Shown piece by piece: positions 7,186 to 26,283 of a stretch of 64,000 nt of DNA; positions within the stretch are counted from its first letter, which is position 1, and every line of letters begins with the position of its first letter. This stretch comes from a virus (Duplodnaviria > Caudoviricetes). The position numbers and the translations under genes were made by a program. Location: IMG/VR virus record IMGVR_UViG_3300048086_000017, positions 341-64,340 of that record, one strand, 5' to 3'. The notes below the pieces were generated by a model. That model worked only from the letters and a program-made list of their open reading frames with translations, searched no databases and was not told the DNA's origin.

Positions 7186-8031
7186 TCAGCACGCGGTTTC
7201 TCTCCCTCGTTTTTGTAGATAAATCTTCGCTTGATCTATCCCTTCTCGTATCATGTCCAGGTTAGTCCCCCAATTGGATAGAGGGTTCCATGCCTGTTTC
7301 AAGGTGTTGCATTTGTAGCAGGCGGGAACGCAATTACCCCAAACCGTTCCCTCCCCATGACCAAGTGGGATGAAATGCTCTAAGACGCTGTATGCCCCTT
7401 GGCAGTAGGCGCATCGCCAGTTATAGTGATCTAGTGTTTCTAGCCATTGCTCAAGAGTAAGCGTTGCGGGTAGATTGGCTCTGCTGGCTCTTGTATTGTG
7501 ATACTTTACCTTGCGCCTTTCCCCTTCAAGTATTCTTTCTCGTTCTCTTTTGCCCTCCTCCTCTGGGGTGATCTGCTGTGCTTGCTGTGTCTTCCCTGTA
7601 ACCTGGGAACGAATGCCTTGTGTGGTCTGATGAGTGGGAACGTCGTAAGCAGCATAGGCTAGCTCAACATTCTCTTTTTGATAGAGGATGCGCATGGTGC
7701 GATACCTGTGAGGGGTATAGGTATCATCAGTTGCATATTCTGCCGTAACATATCCTTTCTGGGCTAAGAATGCTAGCGCATTCTCTACTGCTTCAATTTC
7801 AAACAACTCAAACATATTTGCAGCCAACTCGGCAATCGTGCGTCGTGCCGCTGGTTTATATGCATCTGGGTCATCTGCCCACTCTATGGCTTCAAGGTAC
7901 GTGGCGTAAGTTGCGCTGATTGCGTCCAGTTGCATCGCTGCGCAATGGTTGTTATCACAAATCGTTACAAATTTTTTGCGAAGAAGGGCAATCGGGTCCC
8001 TTGTCTGGCTATAGAAGTCGTAGCTATTCAT
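7186..8031 (-). CDS. HNH endonuclease with N-terminal replication-initiator-like domain
   Basis: C-terminal CAYC...EHFIP..HGEGTVWGNCVPACYKCNTLK is HNH with zinc ligands. Confidence 0.85.
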   Translation of the reverse strand: MNSYDFYSQTRDPIALLRKKFVTICDNNHCAAMQLDAISATYATYLEAIEWADDPDAYKPAARRTIAELAANMFELFEIEAVENALAFLAQKGYVTAEYATDDTYTPHRYRTMRILYQKENVELAYAAYDVPTHQTTQGIRSQVTGKTQQAQQITPEEEGKRERERILEGERRKVKYHNTRASRANLPATLTLEQWLETLDHYNWRCAYCQGAYSVLEHFIPLGHGEGTVWGNCVPACYKCNTLKQAWNPLSNWGTNLDMIREGIDQAKIYLQKRGRETAC

Positions 8032-8082: not shown

Positions 8083-8131
8083 TTGACATCGTTACCGTTT
8101 CAGTATACACTAGTAAAGTACACAGTGTCAA
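8083..8131. promoter_or_regulatory. Overlapping divergent promoters with GntR-type operators
   Basis: Rightward TTGACA(8083)-17-TACACT(8106); leftward TTGACA(8131-8126)-18-TATACT(8107-8102); GTATAC and GTACAC cores. Confidence 0.7.
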
Positions 8132-8164
8132 GTGCAAATACACACCAATTTGAAAGGAATTTGA

Positions 8165-8893
8165 ATGGGGGAGAAATATACGGTTGAGTCAATGACCGAT
8201 GAGTTACGTGGTCGCATCCTTCATCGTGACTTTGGCACGAATGGGCCGATCCCAAAGGTTTCTGAACTTGCAAGAGGTTGGGGGACGTCACGAACAACGG
8301 TCTATCAGGTGGTACAAATGCTTCTTTCTGAGGGGCTACTCATCCCGAAGGGGACTGGCTATAATGTCAACTTTCCCATGCGCATCCCTGGCATCACCCC
8401 GACATTTGATAAATACCTTGTCGAGCAGGGGTTGCCCCCAAAGCAAGAGAACATTATTGAGCCTGAGCTAATCCAAATGCCTGATGAGATAGCGGCCATG
8501 TTCAAGCAGCCCAAAGGCGTGCATGTTGTGCATCGGATGAGGCGACAAGGAACGGTTGATATCCCCTATAGGCTCGCTGAAAACTGGTATCCCGCCAGTC
8601 TCGCCGCTGAATTTGTCGATGCCATGCGCAGAGACTCCAATCTCGATGTACTGAGCGAAATCAAGCGGGTGCATGGGGTGTATATCACGCAAGTGCATGA
8701 GGATGTCATAGGGCGTTTGCCCACGGCAAAAGAGGCAAGCGATTTGTCCATTGTGCGAACCGCGCCAGTCCTTGAAGTGCGTCGAAGTAACTTTGCAGCG
8801 GATGGAACGCCGATCATGTTCAACAAGATCATCTTTGTTGGCGCGTACTTCCTGCTCAGTTACGATTATCCTGCAAATCATTGGAGTGCGTAA
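8165..8893 (+). CDS. GntR-family (HutC subfamily, UTRA domain) transcriptional regulator, KorSA/TraR-like
   Basis: N-terminal wHTH (PKVSELARGWGTSRTTVYQVVQML..EGLL..KGTG); C-terminal UTRA pattern (RMRRQG..PY.LAENWYP; PVLEVRRSNFAADGTPIMFNKIIF). Confidence 0.9.
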   Translation: MGEKYTVESMTDELRGRILHRDFGTNGPIPKVSELARGWGTSRTTVYQVVQMLLSEGLLIPKGTGYNVNFPMRIPGITPTFDKYLVEQGLPPKQENIIEPELIQMPDEIAAMFKQPKGVHVVHRMRRQGTVDIPYRLAENWYPASLAAEFVDAMRRDSNLDVLSEIKRVHGVYITQVHEDVIGRLPTAKEASDLSIVRTAPVLEVRRSNFAADGTPIMFNKIIFVGAYFLLSYDYPANHWSA

Positions 8894-9031
8894 ATCGACG
8901 CAAGAGCGGTGATGTATCAGATCACCGCCCCTGCTGACCTAAGAATGGCGACAAACCCGCCTTTCAAGAGGCTACCCTCTATCATAAGGGTATCGCTCCT
9001 GAAAAGGCAAGATGAACAGGAGAGATACCCT

Positions 9032-9229
9032 ATGTTTACGAGACAAGCATCCTACGAACCCGAAGTAAAGACCTACGACGAACCCGAAGAAGAGCAGTAC
9101 CGTGTCGCGTGCGCTTGGTGCGAAGAAGAGCAGGGCGTGCATAGTTTCGGGTCTCATGGCATTTGCCCAGAACATGCAGAAGCCATGATGGAAGAGCATC
9201 GAGCACGGATAGCCAGGAGGGCGGCATGA
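9032..9229 (+). CDS. Small Cys/His protein
   Basis: CAWC...SHGICPEH; RBS AGGAGA. Confidence 0.7.
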   Translation: MFTRQASYEPEVKTYDEPEEEQYRVACAWCEEEQGVHSFGSHGICPEHAEAMMEEHRARIARRAA

Positions 9230-9456
9230 GCAAGCAAGAAGTCTTGGCATTGTTGAAGAAGGCGTATACGCACAAAGGGGATAAGCATACGGTGCATGAG
9301 GTGCAAGTTATTCTAGAGGATGCTCTGGTGCCAGGAGAGCATCCCCATGCCGCGGACTTCGCAGACGCCTATGTCGATTGGTACTATTCGGGGGTGGCAC
9401 CAACACTTGACTTGGTGGATGAATTGCTGGCAATCGCGCAAGGAGGGCGAGCATGA
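9226..9456 (+). CDS. Hypothetical protein
   Basis: RBS AGGAGG, ATGA overlap. Confidence 0.7.
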   Translation: MSKQEVLALLKKAYTHKGDKHTVHEVQVILEDALVPGEHPHAADFADAYVDWYYSGVAPTLDLVDELLAIAQGGRA

Positions 9457-9677
9457 GGATCATCTACCTCGATATCCGCGCCTACCCGCCAGAGGAGTAT
9501 GAGGCGGAAGTCCTTGCCCTCGATAAGCACGCGCTCTGTATTGTAAGCGAGCGCGACGGGTGCGAGGGCTTCATACGATGGGACTCAGTGATAAGGATTT
9601 TGCAACAAGAGGAGGGCAGCGATGCCAAACATCAATCTGTTGAAGAAAGTACCACACACACAGGAAGGAACAACTAA
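9453..9677 (+). CDS. Hypothetical protein
   Basis: RBS GGAGG, ATGA overlap. Confidence 0.65.
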   Translation: MRIIYLDIRAYPPEEYEAEVLALDKHALCIVSERDGCEGFIRWDSVIRILQQEEGSDAKHQSVEESTTHTGRNN

Positions 9678-9678
9678 G

Positions 9679-10200
9679 ATGGCAGAAGGAACGACAACTA
9701 CCGCGACCATCAAACCATCCGCACGCGGGGCCGTACCACCTTTGGGATTGTTCATTGTAGGCGTCATTGCCCTGCTCTTCTGGGCATGGGGCAACCTCGT
9801 TCAAATCCAGACCAGTGAAGCCTTTCTGTTGGGCGGCGGCAACATCTCGCTTGTCCCCAATTTGCACGTCCTCAATCAGCCATTTGACTTCTTTCATGGT
9901 ACGCTCTCGCCCGATCTGATGAAGGCTGCGACCTGGGCATGGGGGTTAGAGGGATTGTTGCTAGTGGTCTCGATTGGTGTTGAGTACTCGCACATTGTCC
10001 AGAAGCACGCCCGCTGGTTTAATACTGGCGCGATCATCCTGCTTGTGCTTAACTCTATCGCTGATTACCAGTATGGCAGTGTGCAAACCGGATTTTGGGG
10101 GCAAGTGGCCTTTGCCGCGATGACCCTGTTCATGAGCTTTTTTATGGGATTGGTCGGAATACATCTCATCTGGTCCTCGTTTAGCGGGGCGAAACACTAA
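9679..10200 (+). CDS. Four-TM membrane protein (Spd-like candidate)
   Basis: Four hydrophobic segments; immediately upstream of the ATPase. Confidence 0.7.
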   Translation: MAEGTTTTATIKPSARGAVPPLGLFIVGVIALLFWAWGNLVQIQTSEAFLLGGGNISLVPNLHVLNQPFDFFHGTLSPDLMKAATWAWGLEGLLLVVSIGVEYSHIVQKHARWFNTGAIILLVLNSIADYQYGSVQTGFWGQVAFAAMTLFMSFFMGLVGIHLIWSSFSGAKH

Positions 10201-10205
10201 GGAGC

Positions 10206-11870
10206 ATGACGATGCAAGACGATATGCAGCACGAAGAGAACGAGCAGGGGAATGCAACCTCGTTCCAGATGAAAGCGGGTTTAGGGGCTGGCACGTTTGC
10301 GACGGGCGCATTCCTCGATCTTGCCGTCGCGCATGGCAATCCAGTCGGCATGATGCTTGCTGGACTTGCCACCTATGTAGCGGTCAAGCATGGCCCTGAA
10401 TTGATCGAAAAGGCGAGGGGGATTGTTCCCATCAAGCCTGTTCTCCCAACGCGTGAAGTGACCTTGCTTGCCTCATCGCAGAAACGCACGTTTGTGCAGC
10501 GGTGGTTGGGCATTTATCCCGATCAGGCAGAGGAAGAGGAGCCAGACGGCAAGCCATCCCCGCATTATGAGCCTGCTACCGCTGCATATGATCTTGAGAG
10601 AGAGGAGCCAACGGTGCTCATGCAGCAACCACGCAAAGCCATTCAACTCAACACCTCCCAAATCCAGGATATCAACGACGTGGTCGGCAAGGCCATTTTC
10701 ATCGCGGGTATCCGACGTTCAGGGAAAACCACACTCGGCGCTCGCATTGCAGAGGAGTTGGGCAAACATTTTATCCCGTTGCTTCTCCCCGATATGGAGG
10801 GCGATCTGCTTGCTTTGGCGGCAGTCCTTCCCCGCGCTCTTATCGTTGGGCACCCCGACGCGGATACGAGCCAGTATCCAGGCCCGCGCTTTGCCGGTGT
10901 CACGTCCCAACATGCGCAAAGCCTGGGCTATGACATTCTGGATAAGGGCTTTCAGGTCATCCTTGATCTTGCCTCGTATCCGACGCTGGAAGAGGGCATC
11001 ATGGTTCAGGTAGGATGCATTCGCGGCATGATTGCCTGGGCTGACGCACATCCTGGGCTGCGCTGCCCCTCTCACGTCTACCTTGACGAAGCGCAGCGCT
11101 ACCTGCCCCAAACGCTGGGCGACTCAGTCATTCAGGATAAAGCGGTTGTGGGCGAACTGCTCCGCGCCTATATGGATGTGATTGCTATTGGTGGCAAACG
11201 GGGCATAGCGCCTGTCATCCTGACACAGCGGTTTGCTCAAGTCAATAAAAAGATCATGGCTCAGTCGGAAGTCTTCTTCTTGATGCGACAAACCCATGAT
11301 AAGGATTTGGAGCGCTGTATGGAGTATGTGAAGAAGACGACAGCAACAGAGGAAGCCATTTCAAAGTTCAAGCAGGGCCAGGGCGTCTACATTGCCGCCG
11401 ATGGGATGCAACAGGTGTGTCAGTTCCTCCCCCGTCGCTCGAATAGTGCGCGTTCCTCTACCCCCAAGGCCGAGGCAGCAGATCGCTATGCGGATATGCC
11501 CCTTACGTTGTCGCAACGCCCCTTGCGTCCTGATATGGAGCGGGCGCAACCTGAAAACATGACGCGTAACGCAACGCAAGAGGATCGCAATTTTTACGCT
11601 CAACGCAACGACGCAACGCGCAACGGCAACGCGCAACAAAATACAGCGCGTCCTGATATGGGGCGGGCGCAACCAGCGCAAAGTAGCGCAACGGGTGCAA
11701 ACTTCAAGTACCAACTGGCCGAGCGGCAAATCATTGAGATTTTCGCCCTTTATCCCGATATCATCAGAAATAAAGATCATGCATTGGCAAAGGTGGGGGC
11801 AAATAGTGCCTATCGTGACCACTTCAACTTTTTAATCCAGCAACGCAGAGACAAGAGAGGACATAACTAA
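10206..11870 (+). CDS. Membrane-anchored HerA/FtsK/VirB4-superfamily ATPase (Tra-like DNA translocase candidate)
   Basis: N-terminal hydrophobic hairpin; Walker A GIRRSGKTT; Walker B VYLDEAQRY; GGKRGIAPVILTQR; FFLMRQ; short helical C-terminal domain. Confidence 0.85.
   Translation: MTMQDDMQHEENEQGNATSFQMKAGLGAGTFATGAFLDLAVAHGNPVGMMLAGLATYVAVKHGPELIEKARGIVPIKPVLPTREVTLLASSQKRTFVQRWLGIYPDQAEEEEPDGKPSPHYEPATAAYDLEREEPTVLMQQPRKAIQLNTSQIQDINDVVGKAIFIAGIRRSGKTTLGARIAEELGKHFIPLLLPDMEGDLLALAAVLPRALIVGHPDADTSQYPGPRFAGVTSQHAQSLGYDILDKGFQVILDLASYPTLEEGIMVQVGCIRGMIAWADAHPGLRCPSHVYLDEAQRYLPQTLGDSVIQDKAVVGELLRAYMDVIAIGGKRGIAPVILTQRFAQVNKKIMAQSEVFFLMRQTHDKDLERCMEYVKKTTATEEAISKFKQGQGVYIAADGMQQVCQFLPRRSNSARSSTPKAEAADRYADMPLTLSQRPLRPDMERAQPENMTRNATQEDRNFYAQRNDATRNGNAQQNTARPDMGRAQPAQSSATGANFKYQLAERQIIEIFALYPDIIRNKDHALAKVGANSAYRDHFNFLIQQRRDKRGHN
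11512..11692 (+). repeat. Cluster of nine same-strand CGCAAC hexamers plus a 27-bp near-direct repeat
   Basis: CGCAAC at 11512, 11545, 11570, 11604, 11612, 11619, 11632, 11668, 11687; GCGTCCTGATATGG(A/G)GCGGGCGCAACC twice. Confidence 0.85.
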
Positions 11871-11871
11871 C

Positions 11872-12342
11872 ATGCCAAACAAACAGACAGCAACATTCCC
11901 ATTTGATTTCATTGTCATGTGGGTTCGCCCGAATATCGCACAGATGAAGCCTGAACGCTGCATGTTCTGCAAGGAGCAAGGCGTTTACCGTCTCTATCAA
12001 ACAGTGAGCATGAAACATATTCTCGATCATGGGATGGATGCCGCGTGGCGTAATGCTATCGCCCGTCAACTGAGAGGCGATTATGCCTTTGGTCTCTATC
12101 AGCCCGTGTGCTTAGAGCATTGTATCCAGTTTGCGGCCATTCAATTAGGGAAGCAGAGGCCAATTCAGCAACTCTTGAGCAATGCCTCTTTGGTAAAAAA
12201 GCAGCAAGAGATTGACCTCTCCCTTGTGATTGTAAGCACCGTTCGTTCGCTCGATGATGAGGGGGATAATTGGGTGGTAGCTGCCCCCAACACCACGATT
12301 GAAGAGGTGGTTGCTCATCTCAAAACCGTAAAAAGACCGTAG
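11872..12342 (+). CDS. Hypothetical protein
   Basis: RBS GAGAGGA; follows the ATPase. Confidence 0.7.
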   Translation: MPNKQTATFPFDFIVMWVRPNIAQMKPERCMFCKEQGVYRLYQTVSMKHILDHGMDAAWRNAIARQLRGDYAFGLYQPVCLEHCIQFAAIQLGKQRPIQQLLSNASLVKKQQEIDLSLVIVSTVRSLDDEGDNWVVAAPNTTIEEVVAHLKTVKRP

Positions 12343-12446
12343 GCAGAAAGGAAGGACTCATATCATGACTAAAGGACAAGTGGCGACGGCCTTCAAGAGC
12401 GTGTGGAAGAGTCTCATTTCGTGGGGCTGGACGAAAGGGGCAGGAT

Positions 12447-13247
12447 ATGAGGGGTAAATTCTACGTCTATGGGTTGTACTATCCCGAAAACATGGGCGGG
12501 CGATGCTTCTATGTAGGCAAGGGGCAAGGCAACCGGATACATGACCATGAGAGAGAAGCAAAGGGATTGATGAAAGAATATAACCCTTACAAGTGTAATG
12601 TTATTCGCAAGATATGGGCGAAGGGGGAACAGATACAGAAAATCAAACTCGCTCACTTTCTGATAGAAGAAGATGCTTTCGCCTATGAAACGGCTCTCAT
12701 ATTCTTCACGCCAGGGTTAGCTAATCTTACGGATGGTGGCGAAGGCAGATCAGGGTCCGTGAGATCGGAGGAGGAGCGACAGCGAATCAGCAAATCCCTC
12801 ATGGGGCATGGATGCTCAGATGAGACACGGGAACTGATGAGCCGCAACAGAAAGGGGAGGGTGATCTCAGCATCCCATCGGCGTGCGCTTCTTGAGTCTA
12901 TAACAGGGAAAAAGTTATCAGAAGAGACACGGCGGAAAATAAGTGAAGCGAACAAAGGGAGATCGCTCTCGGAAGAACATCGCCAAAAGGTCAGTGATTC
13001 CCACAAGGGGAAGCCGCTTTCAGAAGAACATCGCAAGAAACTCAGTGAAGCCCAACAGAAGAGACCGCCTGACTCAGAGGCAACGTTGCGCAAAAGAGCA
13101 GAAAGTATAAAAAAGAGCTGGACTGAGGAGAAGCGAAAGCAGGTAAGTGAATCCTTGCGGGGGCATGAGGTATCAGAAGAAACACGCCGCAAGATTAGGG
13201 AAACAAAAAGATTGGCAAGGGAAAACAAAAAGGAGCAGGCATCATGA
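12447..13247 (+). CDS. GIY-YIG (LEM-3-like) homing endonuclease with NUMOD3 repeats
   Basis: FYVYGL...FYVGKG...RIHDH..EA; repeated SEETRRKISEANKG / SEEHRQKVS / SEEHRKKLSEA. Confidence 0.85.
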   Translation: MRGKFYVYGLYYPENMGGRCFYVGKGQGNRIHDHEREAKGLMKEYNPYKCNVIRKIWAKGEQIQKIKLAHFLIEEDAFAYETALIFFTPGLANLTDGGEGRSGSVRSEEERQRISKSLMGHGCSDETRELMSRNRKGRVISASHRRALLESITGKKLSEETRRKISEANKGRSLSEEHRQKVSDSHKGKPLSEEHRKKLSEAQQKRPPDSEATLRKRAESIKKSWTEEKRKQVSESLRGHEVSEETRRKIRETKRLARENKKEQAS

Positions 13248-14365
13248 ATGTGGAACCGCTAAAAAACATCTGGGACTCTCTTCTTCATTGGCGCTGGTCG
13301 AAATCGTTGTTGCACTGGATCATTATAAGCGCGGGCACGATGGCCGAGTGTGTGTTTCTCATCGCTAGCCTTTGGGTATCGGTCAATGCCAACGTACATA
13401 AATTTGTCCTCCTCTTCATCAATGAGGACACAACCATTCACTTAACCGAACTGGCAACGACGGCGTATGTTGCCTTGCCTGAATGTATCGTTGCTTTGGC
13501 AGTGGTAACGACGCTCTCTCATCTGCGTATGGTGAGAGTGGATAAGCGAGCAATCATCTGGAGTATTCTGTTTGGATTACCGACTCTGGTCTTTCTGGTT
13601 TTATCCCTGGTGACCCTCTGGAATGCAGTCCAATCGGTCACGTTTGAAATGCCGGCGCCACTCGTTTCGACTCGCGCATTAGCTGGTTATACCTTCGCCT
13701 TTGCCAGCCTCTTATACACGCAAATAGGCATTCCTCAAGAGAAAGATAGACTGTCTAAGAAGGATGAATTGATTGCCGATCTGCGAAATGAAATGGCGCA
13801 AAGCCGGGCCGATCTCATCCGAGAAAAAGAGGAAATGCTGACGGCATTGGTGACTTCAAAGGATGCCAAAATTGCAGAATTGCAAAACTTCATCCAGCAG
13901 ATAAGCCATGAATTGAGCCAGCAAAAAGAGCTTTTAACTGAAAGCAAAACCGTTCAATCGGAATTGCTAAAAGCCGTGAATAAATCGTCGGAAGATGCGC
14001 TGGCAGGGTATTCAGAAGCATGCAAAGAATGGATAAAGAGCGGGACAAAAACCGTTTTGATCGATGAGATAACCAAGTTTACGGGGCATTCAAAACGCAA
14101 GATTGCCAGTGCCATAACGAATGGTATTCTTGCGGTATCGTCCCGCAATAAAGATTTAATACTCATCTCTTCACTCATCGAATGGCTCAAGAATACCCCG
14201 CCTATTCTCTCTTTATCCGAGACGAATAACGGCGCGAAACCCGACCCATTGACCACCGTAAAAGACGTCTTTCGTATGCAGGAAATGGAAGTCACTACCG
14301 ACGCGTTGGATACCGTCACGGTGTCAACCAATGGACACACAAACGGACACCAGAAAGGATCATGA
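13244..14365 (+). CDS. Four-TM + coiled-coil + C-terminal HTH protein (SpdB2-like architecture)
   Basis: Four hydrophobic helices, ~90-aa heptad region, then TVLIDEITKFTGHSKRKIASAITNGIL...ILISSLIEWL. Confidence 0.7.
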   Translation: MNVEPLKNIWDSLLHWRWSKSLLHWIIISAGTMAECVFLIASLWVSVNANVHKFVLLFINEDTTIHLTELATTAYVALPECIVALAVVTTLSHLRMVRVDKRAIIWSILFGLPTLVFLVLSLVTLWNAVQSVTFEMPAPLVSTRALAGYTFAFASLLYTQIGIPQEKDRLSKKDELIADLRNEMAQSRADLIREKEEMLTALVTSKDAKIAELQNFIQQISHELSQQKELLTESKTVQSELLKAVNKSSEDALAGYSEACKEWIKSGTKTVLIDEITKFTGHSKRKIASAITNGILAVSSRNKDLILISSLIEWLKNTPPILSLSETNNGAKPDPLTTVKDVFRMQEMEVTTDALDTVTVSTNGHTNGHQKGS

Positions 14366-14602: not shown

Positions 14603-14631
14603 GCCCCGATGAGAGCGATCCTCATCGGGGC
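14603..14631. terminator. Hairpin ending the GntR operon
   Basis: GCCCCGATGAG / CTCATCGGGGC. Confidence 0.6.
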
Positions 14632-16035: not shown

Positions 16036-16917
16036 ATGAACGCCATTGCCATCGAGAAGGGGATGAAACTCCCCTTCACCCTCGCAATCCAGGCGGTAGA
16101 GGAATTGCTCGACGTATACCTCGCCGCTGATGCCCCCTTCACCATCACGCTCTACGATAGGGGCCATCCTGAGCGGCAAGCATCGACAATGCAAGAGGGC
16201 AAGCAGATCATTCGTACGCTGCTCTTCCCCGGTAATCTCTTGCATATCCACAGAGGCGAGTCTCTTGTGTATGTGTTGCCTTACAACGTGGCTAAAGACA
16301 TTGCCCGCACGGTCTACCTTCCTGAAGAAGATCGCGTCCCTCTCGCCTTCTCTGAGGAGCATTGGCTGCGATTGGTTGAGGGGAAACGGGCGTTTTTGTC
16401 AGATGAGGAGCGCATGAGGGAAGCCGCTCAAAAAACAGGTGATGGGCATAGAGGGCGCCCATTGCCTGAGGCGTGGCGTGAAGCAGTCAGCCGTGGGAAA
16501 CGCTTGCATGATGCAGGTCAGTTTGATCCTGAGCGATACGAAAGAAAGCCTCAGTTTGAAGCCTCCCCGCTTCCTGGTGATACACGCTGGATACCGCTTT
16601 CCCAACCTGACCCGGAAGTTGAGCAGGAGAAAAAGAGGCTTCTCAGTGAAAAACGCCGCAATGTTTCCGAAGAGACACGCCAGAAACTCAGCGAAGCAGG
16701 CAAGAAAAAGAAAGGGGTACGCCAAGGCCCGATGAGCAGGGAAACCCGCGACAAGCTAAGCGAGGCGTATAAAAAGCGTCCTCATACTCCCCCGGTCTAT
16801 TCAGAGGATGGGCTCAAGAGAATGGCAGAGGCGCGTGCGCGTGGCCATGAAACGCAGAAACGTCGGGCTGCAGAGCGCCGCGCCAAACAACAGGAGGCGC
16901 AAGATGATCGACATTAA
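16036..16917 (+). CDS. Hypothetical protein with C-terminal NUMOD3-like repeats
   Basis: SEETRQKLSEAGK, SRETRDKLSEAYK. Confidence 0.7.
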   Translation: MNAIAIEKGMKLPFTLAIQAVEELLDVYLAADAPFTITLYDRGHPERQASTMQEGKQIIRTLLFPGNLLHIHRGESLVYVLPYNVAKDIARTVYLPEEDRVPLAFSEEHWLRLVEGKRAFLSDEERMREAAQKTGDGHRGRPLPEAWREAVSRGKRLHDAGQFDPERYERKPQFEASPLPGDTRWIPLSQPDPEVEQEKKRLLSEKRRNVSEETRQKLSEAGKKKKGVRQGPMSRETRDKLSEAYKKRPHTPPVYSEDGLKRMAEARARGHETQKRRAAERRAKQQEAQDDRH

Positions 16918-18849: not shown

Positions 18850-19333
18850 TGATACGCGGTTTCCTCGCTATCCGGTGCCTGCCGATGACTCGTTTGAGGA
18901 AATGCCCAATCACTGGTTCGTGTTTGATCGGCAGGAAAGAACACTTGCGCTGCTCCGATGCGTTGAGGGTCATGGCTGTTTCATGATTGGGCAAGTTTCC
19001 TTTACCCTCATCGAGTTCCCTGTCGTCTCTGAATTGTTTGCCAATGCCCCCTGGCATTCCCCGGCTGAGCGATTGTATGCGGCCTTCCAGTTTGGGGGCG
19101 TGACAGAGAAGCGTGTTGAGCAAAGCCGTGACTATCTTTTGAAAGCGGCTAAGGAAGGGATTTATGATCAGGAGATGCGCCCGCTGCGCAATGTCCTCTC
19201 TCGCGTCCGGTTGAAACTGTCTCAGTTGAGGATTGTTCCTGTTTCGATGATTGGGACGGGGTATATGCTCAGGAGGATAACCCCTATCACGGCAACTCTG
19301 TACAGCAGAAGGAGAACGCATGAAGAGGAATAA
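18836..19333 (+). CDS. OmpR/PhoB-type winged-helix DNA-binding protein without receiver domain
   Basis: MRPLRNVLSRVRLKLSQLRIVPVSMIGTGYML. Confidence 0.75.
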   Translation: MIDYDDTRFPRYPVPADDSFEEMPNHWFVFDRQERTLALLRCVEGHGCFMIGQVSFTLIEFPVVSELFANAPWHSPAERLYAAFQFGGVTEKRVEQSRDYLLKAAKEGIYDQEMRPLRNVLSRVRLKLSQLRIVPVSMIGTGYMLRRITPITATLYSRRRTHEEE

Positions 19334-20078
19334 ACTCTCCCTCTGGCTCAAAACCCGCATTGAGATGATCGCCCTCTTTGTCTTTGTGGTCGCCATTGGC
19401 ACGGGCACGACTTCAGCCTTCCTGTACACCTACAACCTCAATTCGATGCATGATGTGGTTGTTGCCTTTGGGGATGACGGGCATGTGCTGCTTGCTCTGC
19501 TCATCGCTAACCTCTTACCGGAGTTGGGGTTACTCTTCGTCGGTGTTGGTATCATGGCAATTGCGCGGGCAAGCTGGCATATCCCCTTGTCTGATATCGG
19601 GATGACAAAGCCTCACATCTCACCTGTGGGGCTGATAGTGCTGCTTCTTTCCCCATTTGCAGTCCTTTTGATGAGTTGGGGTGCAAGAAGCATTGCACCG
19701 TGGTGGCAAGGGATTGTGCATGTGGCCCCATTGGATAGGACAACGGTACTTACGGCGTTTCATGGGTTGCCGCTCTCGACGGCGTTGATGGTTGTGCATA
19801 TCGTCATTGTTGCGCCTGTCTGTGAAGAGGTGTTATTCAGGGGAGTGCTGCAATTTCAACTAGCAAGGTGGTTGCCTGCGTGGGCGGTTGTGCTCATTAT
19901 CCCGCTGGTATCGATCCTCTTTGCCGTAGGACATGAGGATCTGGGGGCGCTGCTGTCCTATGTGGGCGCGGGCCTCGTCTTTGGCCTCGTTGCGCAGATG
20001 ACCCGCTCGATATGGCCTGCTATCATCGTGCATGCGTTAGTCAATGGCCTCTTTGTGCTCATGGTGCTCACTCGTTAG
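19320..20078 (+). CDS. CPBP (Abi/CAAX) intramembrane metalloprotease
   Basis: PVCEEVLFRG, FAVGH, IIVHALVN; many TM segments. Confidence 0.9.
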   Translation: MKRNKLSLWLKTRIEMIALFVFVVAIGTGTTSAFLYTYNLNSMHDVVVAFGDDGHVLLALLIANLLPELGLLFVGVGIMAIARASWHIPLSDIGMTKPHISPVGLIVLLLSPFAVLLMSWGARSIAPWWQGIVHVAPLDRTTVLTAFHGLPLSTALMVVHIVIVAPVCEEVLFRGVLQFQLARWLPAWAVVLIIPLVSILFAVGHEDLGALLSYVGAGLVFGLVAQMTRSIWPAIIVHALVNGLFVLMVLTR

Positions 20079-20703: not shown

Positions 20704-21271
20704 GTGGATGTTGATACGACAAGAATACGAAAGTGGGGATGCCTCGTTAAGTGCCTTAGAACGCCACTACGGGGTCAGTAGGCAGGCCATAAGGAAACGT
20801 GCCGCCAAAGAGCAATGGGTGACACCAGAGCGGTTACAGGGGCCAGTTACAGGGAACTCGCATGGGGTAATCACCAGAGATGTCAACGCGGGCATGAGAG
20901 TAGCCGAAGCGATTAAGTATCGTCAAGCGGGCTGGACATATGAACGCATAGCCGCTGCGTGTTCCTATGCCAATCCAGGCAGCGCGAGAAATGCCGTGCA
21001 AAGAGAACTGGATAGGATACTGACACAACAAGTAGAGGAGTGGCGTACCGATCATCTTGCGAGACTGGAGAAGTTACATGAGGAGATATGGACGCTCACC
21101 ATGGATCGTAAGGCAAAGGGGCGATTATTCGCGCTTGACCGCACACTGGCCATTCTTGAGAGAGAGGCGAAACTCTTAGGTCTCGACAAGAAGTCGGATG
21201 AGGAGGCGCAAGGGGCGCAAGTCATCATACAGGAAGTACCGGCGGGCTTATTGGAGGGGCCGAAACTATGA
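20687..21271 (+). CDS. terS: Terminase small subunit
   Basis: HTH (YESGDASLSALERHYGVSRQAIRKRA..EQW), second HTH, ILEREAKLLGLD; directly upstream of TerL. Confidence 0.8.
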   Translation: MIDPHEWMLIRQEYESGDASLSALERHYGVSRQAIRKRAAKEQWVTPERLQGPVTGNSHGVITRDVNAGMRVAEAIKYRQAGWTYERIAAACSYANPGSARNAVQRELDRILTQQVEEWRTDHLARLEKLHEEIWTLTMDRKAKGRLFALDRTLAILEREAKLLGLDKKSDEEAQGAQVIIQEVPAGLLEGPKL

Positions 21272-22602
21272 TACGGGTTCCTGTTCAGAAGATACCGTCC
21301 CCTCAGTTGCGCGGCGCTGGCTTAGAACTTATTGGGTGCCGTGATTTAGAGGTGGCACTCGACGGACCAGCAGGGAGCGGCAAAACAGTTGCGGCACTCT
21401 TCAAGGTGCATGCATTGCTTCTTGCTTATCCAGGGGCTAAGGCGCTTGTTGCACGCAAAACCAACACCGCGCTTGCTGGATCGGCGGTGGCAACGTTTCG
21501 AGATACTATTCTCGATATTCGCCATAACGTGCATTATTTTGGGGGCAATAAGATCAAGCCTGCGGCCTTTGAGTATGCGAATGGATCGCTCATGATTATC
21601 AATGGGCTTGATCGCCCCGGTAAAGTGAAGTCGTGGGAATTTGACGTTGCCTATATCAACGAGGCCAGTGAGTGCAACGTAGAGGATATCGAGTTTGTGC
21701 GGTCAAGGTTGCGCAACGGCAAAATGCCCTATCACCAGCTCATCATGGACACCAATCCCGATGCTCCGATGCACTGGTTAAACCTTCGCTGTAACGCGGG
21801 GATAACGACGCGCCTCCTCTCGCGCCACGAAGACAATCCGCGCTATCATGATGGGCGTGATTGGACAGAAGAGGGACGCGCCTATATCTTCGATGTGTTG
21901 GAAGGGTTAACCGGTGTGAGATTGGCCCGCCTCCGCTATGGTGTCTGGGCTGCGGCTGAAGGGGCCGTCTACATGGACTCCTATGATAGAGCACGCAATG
22001 TCATCAACCCCTTCCCTATCCCACTTGAATGGCCTCGTTGGGTGGTTTTAGATTTTGGCTACACCAACCCATTCGTTGCAAAGTTCTATGCAGAAGATCC
22101 CGACGGCAGGCTCTTCATGTATCGTGAATTCTACCGTACAAAGACGCTGGTTGAAGATCATGTGCAATACATCAAGCAGGTTGTGCGTTGGGGTGAGAAA
22201 GGCGGCGAACCGCTACCACGTGCCGTTATTGCAGATCATGACGCTGAAGACCGCGAGACGTTCACTAGGCATAGTGGGCTATTCACGATACCAGCACACA
22301 AAACGGTGAGCGATGGTATCCAGGCGGTAGCGTCACGGTTGCGCCCCGCCGGTGATGGTCGCCCTCGTTTGATGTACTTCAACAATGCGCTGGTCGAGCC
22401 TGACCCCGAACTGGTGAGAGCAAAGAAGCCCAAATGTACCATTGAGGAATTCGATACGTACATTTGGGACACACGGCAAGGGATGAAACGCGGTGAATTG
22501 CCGGTAAAAGACTCAGATCATGGTTTAGATTGTGATCGGTACATGTGCGCTTATAAAGACTTAGTGCCTTCGGGCGTGAAATACAGTAGCAGGATTTATT
22601 AG
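21268..22602 (+). CDS. terL: Terminase large subunit (PBSX-like)
   Basis: GPAGSGKT Walker A; YINEASE Walker B; DTNP; LDFGYTNP and DHGLDCDRY nuclease motifs. Confidence 0.95.
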   Translation: MIRVPVQKIPSPQLRGAGLELIGCRDLEVALDGPAGSGKTVAALFKVHALLLAYPGAKALVARKTNTALAGSAVATFRDTILDIRHNVHYFGGNKIKPAAFEYANGSLMIINGLDRPGKVKSWEFDVAYINEASECNVEDIEFVRSRLRNGKMPYHQLIMDTNPDAPMHWLNLRCNAGITTRLLSRHEDNPRYHDGRDWTEEGRAYIFDVLEGLTGVRLARLRYGVWAAAEGAVYMDSYDRARNVINPFPIPLEWPRWVVLDFGYTNPFVAKFYAEDPDGRLFMYREFYRTKTLVEDHVQYIKQVVRWGEKGGEPLPRAVIADHDAEDRETFTRHSGLFTIPAHKTVSDGIQAVASRLRPAGDGRPRLMYFNNALVEPDPELVRAKKPKCTIEEFDTYIWDTRQGMKRGELPVKDSDHGLDCDRYMCAYKDLVPSGVKYSSRIY

Positions 22603-24305: not shown

Positions 24306-24619
24306 TGCCACGAAAGAAATGCGTGCTTGTACCGCCAGACCCGCCAACATTCAGCGTCGAGATGCCCGATTGGCTCACGTGGTCGTATGAGTTGCACCTT
24401 GAAGGCTTCAAGACAAAGGTAGAGATCACGCACGCTGGCAAGATCATCACGCTTGCCAACATCCTGCCATGGGATGATTTCATTCATGGGCTAGCAACGG
24501 GCTGGTCATGCTATCCAGAACTGCACTGCAATGCTGACTTGACCACACTGCTTAATAGTTTTATCGAGCAGTGCATTGCTGACGGGCGGTACACGCCAAT
24601 AAGGGAGAGCAAGAAGTGA
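24305..24619 (+). CDS. Hypothetical protein
   Basis: RBS GAGGAGG; abuts. Confidence 0.65.
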   Translation: MPRKKCVLVPPDPPTFSVEMPDWLTWSYELHLEGFKTKVEITHAGKIITLANILPWDDFIHGLATGWSCYPELHCNADLTTLLNSFIEQCIADGRYTPIRESKK

Positions 24620-26283
24620 GTCAAGGCAAGTTACTACAAACTATAGCTCATTTCAGGCGGCTCTTACTCCAGCGCAACGCACAAGCAGAGCAGGCGCTCA
24701 CCGCTGCCTATCGCACGACGCTTGCCACGATCAAGCCACAACTAGACCACCTCTACCAACACATGCAGACACGGCGAGATGCGGGGGAAGATGTGTCGCT
24801 CAACTTTCTCTATGAAGCCAATCGGATGGAGAGGCTGACCACCTTTATTTCACACGAGGTTAATCAGTATGGCTCTTTAGCCCTCAGTCATACAAACACC
24901 TTACAACATCAGGCCATCACCCTTGGCGGGCAATCTGCGCTGTCTCAATTGCATTCCCTAGTGCCTGACGGCGTGCACTGGTCATTTGGTCGCCCGTCAC
25001 CAGATGCCATTGCGAACCTTGTAGGGGCTAGCGCATCAGGAAGCCCCTTATCCGATCTGTTCAATGGCTTTGGCAAGGAAGCGGCTAAAGGGGTAAAGGA
25101 TGCGCTGGTAACTGGAGTCTCATTGGGCAATAACCCGCGCCGTATTGCCCCGCAAGTTGAGCAGGTGCTACAGGTGCCTAGATACAGAGCATTAGTCATT
25201 GCGAGGACTGAAGCAGCAAGGGCATACAGAACCGCGAACTTACAGACATTCAAAGCAAACGATGATGTGGTGAAGCAATGGCGCTGGACAAGTGCAAAGT
25301 CGATACGCTCATGTGCGGCTTGCCTTGGCATGGATGGATCGTTACACGATTTGGATGAGGATATGGGATCTCACCCGTCTTGCATGTGCGTCATGTCACC
25401 TCTTACAAAGTCGTGGGATGAGATATTAAGCCCGTTAGGGATAGACACGTCTGATATCAGCGATACGCAACCAGAATATGAAAGCGGTGCTGATTGGTTT
25501 GACAAGCAGGATGAGAAGACGCAGCGAGGCATTCTAGGCAGTGATAAGGCATACGAGCTTTACGCATCGGGAACGCCTCTCAAGTCATTCGTGGGGCATG
25601 CGAGCGACCAGAAATGGGGAGACAGCATCTATCAGAAGCCCTTGAAAGACATGGCAAAGGGACAAACTTCGCAAGAACCCGCAACGAAGCCCAGTATGCC
25701 CGCATTCCCACAAGGGAAAGACGCACAAGATGTCTTCTTGAAGCAATCACAGGCGCATGCCATCCAATCACTGACCAATGCAGAAAGAGAGAGCGTCAAG
25801 GAATACACCTATTTGAACTATCGAGACATCAACCCCGCGCTGCGTCATCCTGAAGACGTAGCAAAAGAGGACCGGAAGTGGATCGATGAGGAGATAGCTA
25901 ACCTTGATAAAGCCGTTGCTAAGGGGAGTGTCCCCGCTGATATGACCTCCTATCGAGGGATAGAGGCGTATGGAGGGACTCTCGATTTCTTCAAGCAAAA
26001 CGTTGGGAACATCATTTCTGACAACGCCTTTCAATCGACCTCACTGGATAGGGAGCGGGCGAGCATGTTCGCTGATGAGGGCGGCGCTATCGTCAGTGTA
26101 CGAATACCAAAGGGGACGAATGGCCTGTACGTGAGTCCCCTTTCAGAGTTTGATAAAGGAGGCGATACGGCAACACCGGAATATGAAATGTTGTTACCAC
26201 GCGGAACGAAATACAAGATCGTAGAACATACACCGGCAACTGAGGCGGGGAAAGAGCACTTTGTCTTTGAGGTAGTACCATGA
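24616..26283 (+). CDS. Minor head protein (MuF/SPP1 gp7) fused to C-terminal R-S-E ADP-ribosyltransferase
   Basis: MuF: RALVIARTEAARA, WRW...SCAACLGMDG, SHPSCMC. ART: EYT..NY.DIN..LR, YRG, FQSTS, EYEMLLPRG. Confidence 0.9.
   Translation: MSQGKLLQTIAHFRRLLLQRNAQAEQALTAAYRTTLATIKPQLDHLYQHMQTRRDAGEDVSLNFLYEANRMERLTTFISHEVNQYGSLALSHTNTLQHQAITLGGQSALSQLHSLVPDGVHWSFGRPSPDAIANLVGASASGSPLSDLFNGFGKEAAKGVKDALVTGVSLGNNPRRIAPQVEQVLQVPRYRALVIARTEAARAYRTANLQTFKANDDVVKQWRWTSAKSIRSCAACLGMDGSLHDLDEDMGSHPSCMCVMSPLTKSWDEILSPLGIDTSDISDTQPEYESGADWFDKQDEKTQRGILGSDKAYELYASGTPLKSFVGHASDQKWGDSIYQKPLKDMAKGQTSQEPATKPSMPAFPQGKDAQDVFLKQSQAHAIQSLTNAERESVKEYTYLNYRDINPALRHPEDVAKEDRKWIDEEIANLDKAVAKGSVPADMTSYRGIEAYGGTLDFFKQNVGNIISDNAFQSTSLDRERASMFADEGGAIVSVRIPKGTNGLYVSPLSEFDKGGDTATPEYEMLLPRGTKYKIVEHTPATEAGKEHFVFEVVP

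Follow-up and report, generated by a model that had tools for sequence, protein, structure and literature searches.

An ATPase and membrane-protein cassette shared by tailed phages and integrated elements of Ktedonobacteria: a candidate DNA translocase of the HerA/VirB4 clade

We analysed a 64-kb window of viral DNA (the window is the whole stretch examined, nearly all of the 64,340-bp IMG/VR virus record IMGVR_UViG_3300048086_000017, which CheckV rates as complete) and, within it, an operon built around a P-loop ATPase of the FtsK-HerA superfamily. The ATPase belongs to a unit, here called the cassette, that is constant across the approximately 14 distinct loci whose gene neighbourhoods we compared. 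This unit consists of a small soluble protein, a protein with 3-4 transmembrane (TM) segments, the ATPase with a helix-turn-helix (HTH)-like tail, and a polytopic protein that combines TM segments, a coiled coil and an HTH segment. Judged by sequence comparison, the cassette is an undescribed, conserved mobile-element unit, confined to Ktedonobacteria as far as named records go. The window also codes for a large terminase (TerL), portal, MuF-like head protein, major capsid protein and tape measure, together with a DnaC-like loader, a tyrosine integrase and RecT. Because structural genes and an integrase occur together, the gene content identifies the source of the window as a temperate tailed phage. 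The original prediction for this locus was a kor/tra/spd transfer module like those of Streptomyces plasmids, carried by a phage.

The ATPase and its membrane partners

The ATPase has an N-terminal hairpin (residues 20-71), a disordered linker, a HerA/VirB4-like core (140-421), a second disordered linker that is highly variable among homologues, and an HTH-like tail (approximately 503-552). In an AlphaFold model built on 31 homologues, the core is predicted with a pLDDT (predicted local distance difference test) score above 90. The core matches hexameric DNA translocases. When it was ranked by exhaustive structural alignment (VIA), HerA came first (4d2i; Z 25.2, root-mean-square deviation 3.0 over 246 residues), followed by HerA-DUF4297 (9c1m; Z 25.0) and TdpA (8wet; 23.3), with about 250 residues aligned in these three, and by DndH-C (22.1). 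VirB4 (21.4), TrwB (19.2), EccC (17-18), the STIV2 packaging ATPase (17.6), TcpA (17.5) and the FtsK motor (16.2) scored lower. Foldseek concurs, with HerA at 1e-11. The modelled structure thus places the ATPase in the HerA/VirB4 clade, outside the FtsK/SpoIIIE/TraB clade. A caveat of the original prediction, that the motifs look more HerA/VirB4-like than SpoIIIE-like, is in line with this ranking and with the failure of the ATPase to reach PF01580, the translocase domain of the FtsK/SpoIIIE type. The Walker A residues G168, R170, R171, G173, K174 and T175, the Walker B residues D294 and E295, and Q341 and R342 are invariant in the 31 sequences, and the catalytic motifs of the window ATPase are intact.

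Sequence searches say less about the family of the protein. Pfam and NCBIfam scans of the window ATPase return generic P-loop models only, and PF01935 (DUF87) is not reached. Searches of the PDB by sequence, with the single protein and with a profile, gave nothing significant, the top entry being the HerA-like YjgR (E 0.16). Among phages, tblastn yielded a single "hera helicase" (23% identical), encoded by an unrelated podovirus in which the neighbouring genes were uninformative; among plasmids, it yielded only proteins labelled DUF87 or "ATP-binding" from haloarchaea and alphaproteobacteria.

The two ends of the ATPase differ from those of HerA. The HAS barrel is absent: the alignment to 4d2i begins at chain residue 113, and residues 1-140 of the model consist of helices and disorder. 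In the place of the barrel are two Gly/Ala-rich helices (20-71), a pattern that is conserved across homologues, some of which have more hydrophobic helices there. Membrane anchoring of the ATPase is probable. The original prediction of a membrane-anchored HerA/FtsK-superfamily ATPase therefore holds for the enzyme, a P-loop ATPase of the FtsK-HerA superfamily, but the anchor is a weakly hydrophobic hairpin. At the other end, approximately 50 residues are predicted to form a three-helix bundle (pLDDT ~80). The combination of a HerA/VirB4-type core, a hydrophobic N-terminus and an HTH-like tail suggests a ring ATPase of the HerA/VirB4 clade with a layout like that of TraB or the coupling proteins. 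Some family members, as seen in P0061 and P0064, have an N-terminal extension of ~90 amino acids (aa) with the pattern CxxC...HH...CxxC, which resembles an HNH or zinc-finger module joined to the ATPase.

Membrane proteins are encoded on both sides of the ATPase gene. The upstream protein (173 aa) has no match in Pfam, PHROGs, NCBIfam or PADLOC. It had been described as a four-TM protein; it is a membrane protein, but the predicted count is 3-4 segments. The downstream protein (373 aa) was described as combining TM segments, a coiled coil and an HTH, and these are present in that order, the C-terminal segment being HTH-like. An atlas search with its TM part recovered unnamed phage membrane-protein clusters only.

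Distribution of the cassette and its carriers

A word-indexed search gave 75 relatives of the ATPase, and a profile search of 1.84 billion representatives gave 263 cluster representatives at E<=1e-30, a number that rose to 584 with the cut-off at E<=1e-10. The family has no Pfam family. Its members are annotated as hypothetical, with "DUF87 domain-containing protein" and "MFS transporter" as rare exceptions. Around these genes the order of the cassette is kept. BLAST detects the 3-4-TM protein directly upstream of the ATPase in seven elements, and in more distant loci it is recognized by position and topology. The TM, coiled-coil and HTH-like architecture directly follows the ATPase in loci L002, L003, L005, L008, L009, L017, L018 and L024; the downstream polytopic proteins fall into two BLAST groups, and the same architecture occurs elsewhere. 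A soluble protein of ~100 aa is encoded just upstream of the TM gene in five other loci (BLAST), and no BLAST similarity links the 74-aa open reading frame (ORF) of the window to this soluble family. Most of the 14 elements, distant paralogues included, have TM partners on both sides of the ATPase, and a distant paralogous copy on contig 22 of the metagenome-assembled genome (MAG) G001 has the same three-gene order.

Some carriers, the window phage among them, are complete tailed phages. In G005, a related phage whose major capsid protein is 70% identical to that of the window, the cassette occupies the same genome position, so that in both phages it lies at the same place in the early/replication region. 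Another carrier, G004, is a 67-kb record classed as a virus by IMG/VR, in which TerL and the major capsid protein of the window have no match.

Other carriers are integrated elements. In G001, a 48-kb cassette-bearing element (contig 50, 3450-51483; loci L012, L013 and L002) is located between 28-bp direct repeats. One copy of the repeat overlaps the 3' end of the tmRNA gene, and a tyrosine integrase adjoins. The element encodes a primase-PolA fusion, a DUF3987 protein, a helicase, methylases and cargo-like genes. Its cassette comes directly after the primase-PolA gene (in L002), while that of the window comes 5.7 kb after the DnaC-like loader. A second ATPase of the P-loop type (L012:7525-9033) is also encoded in the element; it follows a single-TM protein and has weak matches to TrwB_AAD_bind, phrog_7035 and phrog_2666. 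A reading of L012:6225-6950 as a replication-relaxation protein had no Pfam support and was dropped. In the gap between the DUF3987 and primase-PolA genes there are nine copies of GTAGCA with inverted TTGCTAC copies (L002 4632-4946), and this cluster is likely an iteron-type replication origin of the element.

In a second MAG, G002, the cassette is in a segment of ~33 kb, with a BREX cluster on one side and an integrase on the other. The sole flanking repeat is 14 bp long and is weak evidence for the boundaries. The segment encodes an XRE-TPR regulator, a replication initiator, DnaB, three methylases and DUF5131. The BREX-type cluster immediately to its left (L015 8009-19059, contig 15) encodes a PglX-like methylase, PglZ and BrxL.

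We compared all ORFs of at least 170 aa in both integrated elements with Pfam or PHROGs, and found no terminase, portal, capsid or tail protein; neither element has an ORF of tape-measure size. According to a review, integrative and conjugative elements of actinomycetes (AICEs) are made up of an integrase that adjoins an att site, a regulator of the GntR or XRE type, genes for replication, an ATPase for transfer and hydrophobic partner proteins (PMC2440964). The G001 and G002 elements fit this gene make-up apart from the class of the motor.

The host can be assigned from MAG names and integrated homologues. The named records with ATPase homologues are all Ktedonobacteraceae or Ktedonobacterales, plus one titled "uncultured Chloroflexia bacterium". 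An ATPase-family match was also found in 7 of 401 sampled Chloroflexota genomes; because the output of this search has no taxonomy, the restriction to Ktedonobacteria comes from the named records. Cultured Ktedonobacteria related to these carriers form mycelia and sporulate (PMC6497799), in agreement with the filamentous host that had been proposed. The original prediction also noted that no relaxase or type IV secretion system (T4SS) genes are visible, and none turned up among the ORFs scanned, which were a part of those in the window and in the two integrated elements.

Operon context and the CGCAAC repeat cluster

The features of the operon are listed in Table 1. With the exception of the endonuclease gene, its genes have overlapping or near-touching stops and starts, and we therefore consider them one operon. 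It begins, as predicted, with overlapping promoters on opposite strands. The two sigma-70-like promoters face each other (8083..8131), and the one on the - strand drives an HNH endonuclease gene (7186-8031, -) and no transfer gene. Direct repeats of the TACACA type at 8103-8144 are possible operators. The predicted GntR-UTRA regulator is encoded by the first gene, and both domain matches exceed their cut-offs (UTRA 61 bits, GntR 30.9 bits). Next are the three small ORFs that the original prediction had noted.

Table 1. Features of the operon, and the large terminase gene of the window
Position	Strand	Feature	Remarks
8083-8111	+	sigma-70-like promoter	TTGACA..TACACT, 10/12 consensus match; serves the GntR operon
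8131-8102	-	sigma-70-like promoter	TTGACA..TATACT, 11/12 consensus match; serves the HNH gene
8165-8893	+	HutC-type GntR regulator with UTRA effector domain	first operon gene; Pfam UTRA 1.5e-16, GntR 2.1e-07; phrog_10724 5.7e-21
8909-9229	+	small predicted ORF, <=106 aa	Cys/His-rich C-terminus; no family match (Pfam, PHROGs, NCBIfam, PADLOC)
9226-9456	+	small ORF, 76 aa from ATG 9226	longest frame from 9163; start overlaps preceding stop; weak sub-threshold DUF4129
9453-9677	+	small soluble ORF, 74 aa	positional counterpart of the conserved ~100-aa soluble protein
9679-10200	+	3-4-TM protein, 173 aa from ATG 9679	longest frame from 9622; predicted TM segments
10206-11870	+	FtsK-HerA-superfamily P-loop ATPase, 554 aa	
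11512-11692	+	CGCAAC cluster, nine same-strand copies, 181 bp	within the coding sequence of an ATPase disordered linker
11872-12342	+	156-aa ORF	Cys/His motifs; no family match (Pfam, PHROGs, NCBIfam, PADLOC)
12447-13247	+	free-standing GIY-YIG/NUMOD3 homing endonuclease	Pfam NUMOD3 2.8e-14, LEM-3_GIY-YIG 1.6e-12; phrog_314 7e-23
13244-14365	+	polytopic membrane protein, 373 aa	predicted 3-4 TM (residues 25-160), coiled coil (~165-260), C-terminal HTH-like segment
14362-14559	+	65-aa ORF	overlaps preceding stop (ATGA); last before the hairpin
14603-14631	+	terminator-like hairpin	inverted repeat: 11-bp GC-rich stem, 7-nt loop, poor T tract
21268-22602		TerL (bona fide)	

Two ORFs in the interval, the 156-aa ORF and the GIY-YIG endonuclease, had been omitted from the earlier gene list. 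Both are missing from G005, and so we consider them insertions. The endonuclease gene sits between the genes for the ATPase and the 373-aa protein, its stop overlapping the start of the latter, and is found there neither in G005 nor in any other locus. The HNH and GIY-YIG neighbours are insertions of the homing type and show no conservation alongside the cassette. The idea that the 156-aa and 373-aa ORFs are one gene split by the homing endonuclease was rejected: the 156-aa ORF resembles no downstream partner, and the 373-aa protein is complete by itself. The terminator that was predicted corresponds to the sole terminator-like hairpin, but it lies beyond the end given for the module, after an additional ORF of 65 aa. 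A scan for consensus terminators found none on the + strand and did not pick up this hairpin.

A DNA repeat cluster had been noted at the 3' end of the ATPase gene, and it is real. CGCAAC forms the densest 6-mer cluster of the 64-kb window, at a density that only 0.5% of windows reach; elsewhere the motif favours neither strand (30 copies on the + strand vs 25 on the -). The coordinates assign two, four and three copies, respectively, to the three codon phases. The cluster contains a tandem array of period 7 (11604-11637) and a direct duplication of 27 nt (11525-11551 and 11648-11674, one mismatch, 123 nt apart) that encodes RPDM(E/G)RAQP twice and supplies two of the nine copies. The presence of copies in all three codon phases, together with the array and the duplication, argues that the cluster is a feature of the DNA. 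By analogy with Streptomyces TraB/Tra, in which a C-terminal winged HTH recognizes direct repeats of 8 bp in a clt locus, a clt-like role is possible for it in the window phage, a role to which comparison between loci lends no support.

Several other genes in the window are of separate interest. There are three homing-type endonuclease genes within 10 kb: the HNH gene (281 aa), the GIY-YIG/NUMOD3 gene and an ORF at 16036-16917 that is 30% identical to the GIY-YIG/NUMOD3 protein and has no Pfam match of its own. A gene that comes after the cassette region and before the terminase genes (19320-20078) encodes an Rce1-like membrane protease domain of the CAAX type (Pfam 6e-19). The C-terminal third of the MuF-like head protein (24616-26283) matches ADP-ribosyltransferase families (phrog_3895, 1.6e-19, and the Alt-like phrog_802).

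Possible functions and comparison with known systems

Homology to a kor/tra/spd module was not found. The comparison proteins were from pIJ101. The hhalign probability between the ATPase family profile and pIJ101 Tra is 2%. BLASTP of the 373-aa and 173-aa membrane proteins against SpdB, for which the pIJ101 protein was the sole reference, gave E >1. A tblastn search of 72,556 plasmids returned no Streptomyces record. We therefore reject membership in the TraB/Spd families. The GntR protein is 21% identical to KorA, a family-level likeness that any HutC-type GntR would have. The low conservation of the regulator and of the repeat cluster (see below) also speaks against a kor/tra/spd module. What remains of the original prediction is an analogy, seen in the layout of the ATPase, its TM partners, the mycelial relatives of the host and the integrated carriers without virion genes.

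The cassette fits best with a membrane-sited DNA translocase complex on mobile elements of a mycelial host. We infer ring formation, membrane insertion, DNA binding, the direction and substrate of pumping, and transfer. The ATPase would form a ring at the membrane, docked on its TM partners, and the two HTH domains would hold the double-stranded DNA of the element. ATP hydrolysis would pump this DNA across the membrane or a septal cross-wall, and the phage or integrated element could then spread between hyphal compartments or cells without virions. In the window phage, the GntR/UTRA regulator would tie expression of the operon to a small-molecule signal. Virion-independent spread, in which double-stranded DNA of the element moves across septa or between cells, is a tentative proposal made by analogy; we consider it quite possible, if somewhat short of probable. 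Because the cassette is in integrated elements in which no virion genes were detected, such a role gains indirect support.

Several observations weigh against this proposal. A tailed phage already has an efficient exit from the cell, and the window yielded neither a cell-wall hydrolase nor a relaxase, nor any other part for crossing the envelope. The hairpin at residues 20-71 of the window ATPase is modelled with a pLDDT of 59-77 and has Kyte-Doolittle values below 1.4. A fold search with the tail gave only HTH-like folds (homeodomains, sigma region 4), all non-significant (E >1), and the HTH_23, HTH_17, HTH_28 and coiled-coil matches of homologues of the 373-aa protein in Pfam are all sub-threshold. 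A GntR homologue upstream of the cassette occurs only in the window and in L006 (48% identity), two of the approximately 14 loci. Among the 12 ATPase 3' ends compared, none of the 11 from other family loci has a comparable 6-mer cluster, bar L024 (1270-1464). That locus, from a distant family member, has twelve GGGAAC/GTTCCC copies in 190 bp of the linker-coding part, which we discounted because the repeat translates in frame into a repeated G-N-x-P peptide. The integrated elements are also open to other readings. The second P-loop ATPase could be the real transfer motor of the G001 element, and elements that lack virion genes could be satellites carried in the capsids of a helper. Lastly, the nearest structural relatives of the ATPase include anti-phage HerA proteins, and its best sequence-profile matches, weak ones, are to PADLOC HerA and mad8 (~1e-8).

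These last two points are also the starting point for a role in defence or superinfection exclusion, in which a membrane-sited HerA-type ATPase would sense or expel foreign DNA, or trigger membrane damage, and so protect the lysogen. Sir2-HerA, DUF4297-HerA, TdpA and DndH-C are among the closest folds, temperate carriers often bring defence genes, the linkers of the ATPase are variable, and turnover among elements is rapid. The original prediction had named grouping with defence-associated HerA as evidence against transfer. The ATPase does so in its core fold, but the HAS barrel that is typical of HerA and a nuclease or Sir2-type partner are missing; no Sir2, DUF4297, NurA or other effector was found among the neighbours scanned (Pfam, PHROGs, NCBIfam and PADLOC). 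The PADLOC matches are far below family level, and NCBIfam HerA_antiphage gives 15 bits against a cut-off of 800. The position of the G002 element beside a BREX cluster might seem to favour defence, but its own integrase and flanking repeat place the element there. The shared place of the cassette in the early/replication region of two related phages is not a variable moron slot. We consider a defence role unlikely.

The cassette might instead anchor, organize or segregate the DNA of the element within one mycelium, for example by tethering replication or by bringing copies to spores and new compartments. The layout of TM segments, coiled coil and DNA-binding end recalls phi29 p16.7, a membrane organizer of phage replication, and relatives of FtsK and SpoIIIE perform such tasks. 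The cassette is near replication genes in both L002 and the window, two of its membrane proteins or ATPases have predicted DNA-binding tails, and the hosts are spore-forming (PMC6497799). However, integrating elements need no partition system, these elements carry separate replicative helicases, and a ring translocase with a set of polytopic partners exceeds the needs of a tether. Anchoring overlaps with intramycelial spreading, so that sequence alone hardly separates it from the translocase proposed here; as the function of the cassette it seems improbable to us. A soluble HerA-type helicase that merely adjoins unrelated membrane genes, and that acts in DNA end processing, recombination or packaging, is very unlikely. 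The HerA fold, a match to phrog_2666 ("terminase large subunit", 2e-07) and the RecT and nuclease genes elsewhere in the phage would suit such an enzyme. Yet the phage has a bona fide TerL, the ATPase has no NurA-like partner, and the nearby HNH and GIY-YIG genes are the homing-type insertions described above. The tight, translationally coupled order of TM, ATPase and TM genes is, moreover, conserved across 14 elements.

If the cassette does translocate DNA, the consequences extend beyond this phage. T4SS-independent transfer of double-stranded DNA is known in actinomycetes (TraB/Spd) and, in another form, in Thermus (TdtA). A HerA-clade counterpart restricted to the one other bacterial lineage that is mycelial and forms spores would speak for convergent evolution, with multicellular growth as the driver. 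A tailed phage would have a second, capsid-free route of spread, and this would alter how the spread of prophages, the formation of plaques or pocks and gene flow are understood in Ktedonobacteria. We also speculate, while finding it rather doubtful, that a HerA-based membrane pump is common to temperate tailed phages and capsid-less integrating elements of mycelial Chloroflexota and carries their double-stranded genomes from one hyphal compartment or mating cell to another without virions. Conjugation and spreading in the style of Streptomyces would then have been invented independently, and the phage would be a true hybrid with a conjugative element. An established function for the family (263 representatives at E<=1e-30) would annotate many genes; should the cassette prove to serve defence, it would represent a new type of HerA that is bound to the membrane.

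The cassette shares features with several known systems. With VirB4 and the coupling proteins, the ATPase has in common a predicted N-terminal membrane segment and a VirB4-like core, and a small TM gene lies directly upstream of it, as VirB3 precedes VirB4. The order of TM protein and ATPase can also be likened to archaeal Ced DNA import, in which CedA proteins accompany CedB. In contrast to VirB4 and Ced, the ATPase lacks the all-alpha domain and is much shorter than VirB4, and no relaxase, T4SS or Ced component was found. The HerA-NurA, Sir2-HerA, DUF4297-HerA, TdpAB and DndH systems share the core fold (the best structural match, Z 22-25), and the ATPase has weak PADLOC HerA matches. Whereas these repair and anti-phage systems have a HAS barrel and an effector or nuclease partner, the cassette has neither and has membrane-protein partners.

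A parallel in function may be TdtA, a HerA-like protein of ICETh1 of Thermus thermophilus that serves DNA donation (transjugation) without a T4SS (PMC5365140). TdtA and the ATPase of the cassette are both HerA-like ATPases on integrative elements; TdtA is a membrane-associated hexamer that is proposed to push double-stranded DNA from the donor, as the cassette might. By its description, TdtA has the usual HerA layout and is accompanied by a NurA-like nuclease and a restriction enzyme. The ATPase of the cassette is set apart in having no nuclease partner and, instead, polytopic neighbours, an N-terminal hairpin and an HTH-like tail.

The Streptomyces TraB/Tra and Spd proteins occur with GntR or XRE regulators on AICEs, in systems that include pIJ101, pSVH1 and pSAM2 (PMC4447253, PMC2440964). 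Spd homologues are also found on actinophages, where they are proposed to spread phage DNA (PMC4447253). Common to these systems and the cassette are a single ring ATPase whose N-terminus associates with the membrane and whose C-terminal tail recognizes DNA (all predicted in the phage), adjoining small polytopic membrane proteins that are translationally coupled, a GntR or XRE regulator, and integrating, self-replicating carriers in a mycelial, spore-forming host. In the window phage only, there is also a cluster of short repeats at the 3' end of the ATPase gene. The 373-aa protein has the architecture of SpdB and SpdB2, being polytopic (~4 TM) with a coiled coil and a predicted DNA-binding end and encoded beside the motor gene; the coiled coil of SpdB2 is N-terminal (PMC4447253), whereas that of the 373-aa protein comes after the TM segments. 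The two systems differ in the clade of the motor, which is FtsK/SpoIIIE in Streptomyces and HerA/VirB4 in the cassette. The Kor and TraR regulators are divergent from the motor gene, but the GntR gene of the phage is co-directional with it and first in the operon. The pairing of GntR and motor is not constant, unlike the kil-kor pairing of repressor and motor gene, and the G002 element has its XRE-TPR regulator in place of GntR. In addition, the host of the cassette belongs to the Chloroflexota, the cassette is also in tailed phages, and its repeat cluster is not conserved. By analogy, then, the cassette would work like Streptomyces TraB/Spd or Thermus TdtA, yet with proteins from outside the TraB/Spd families.

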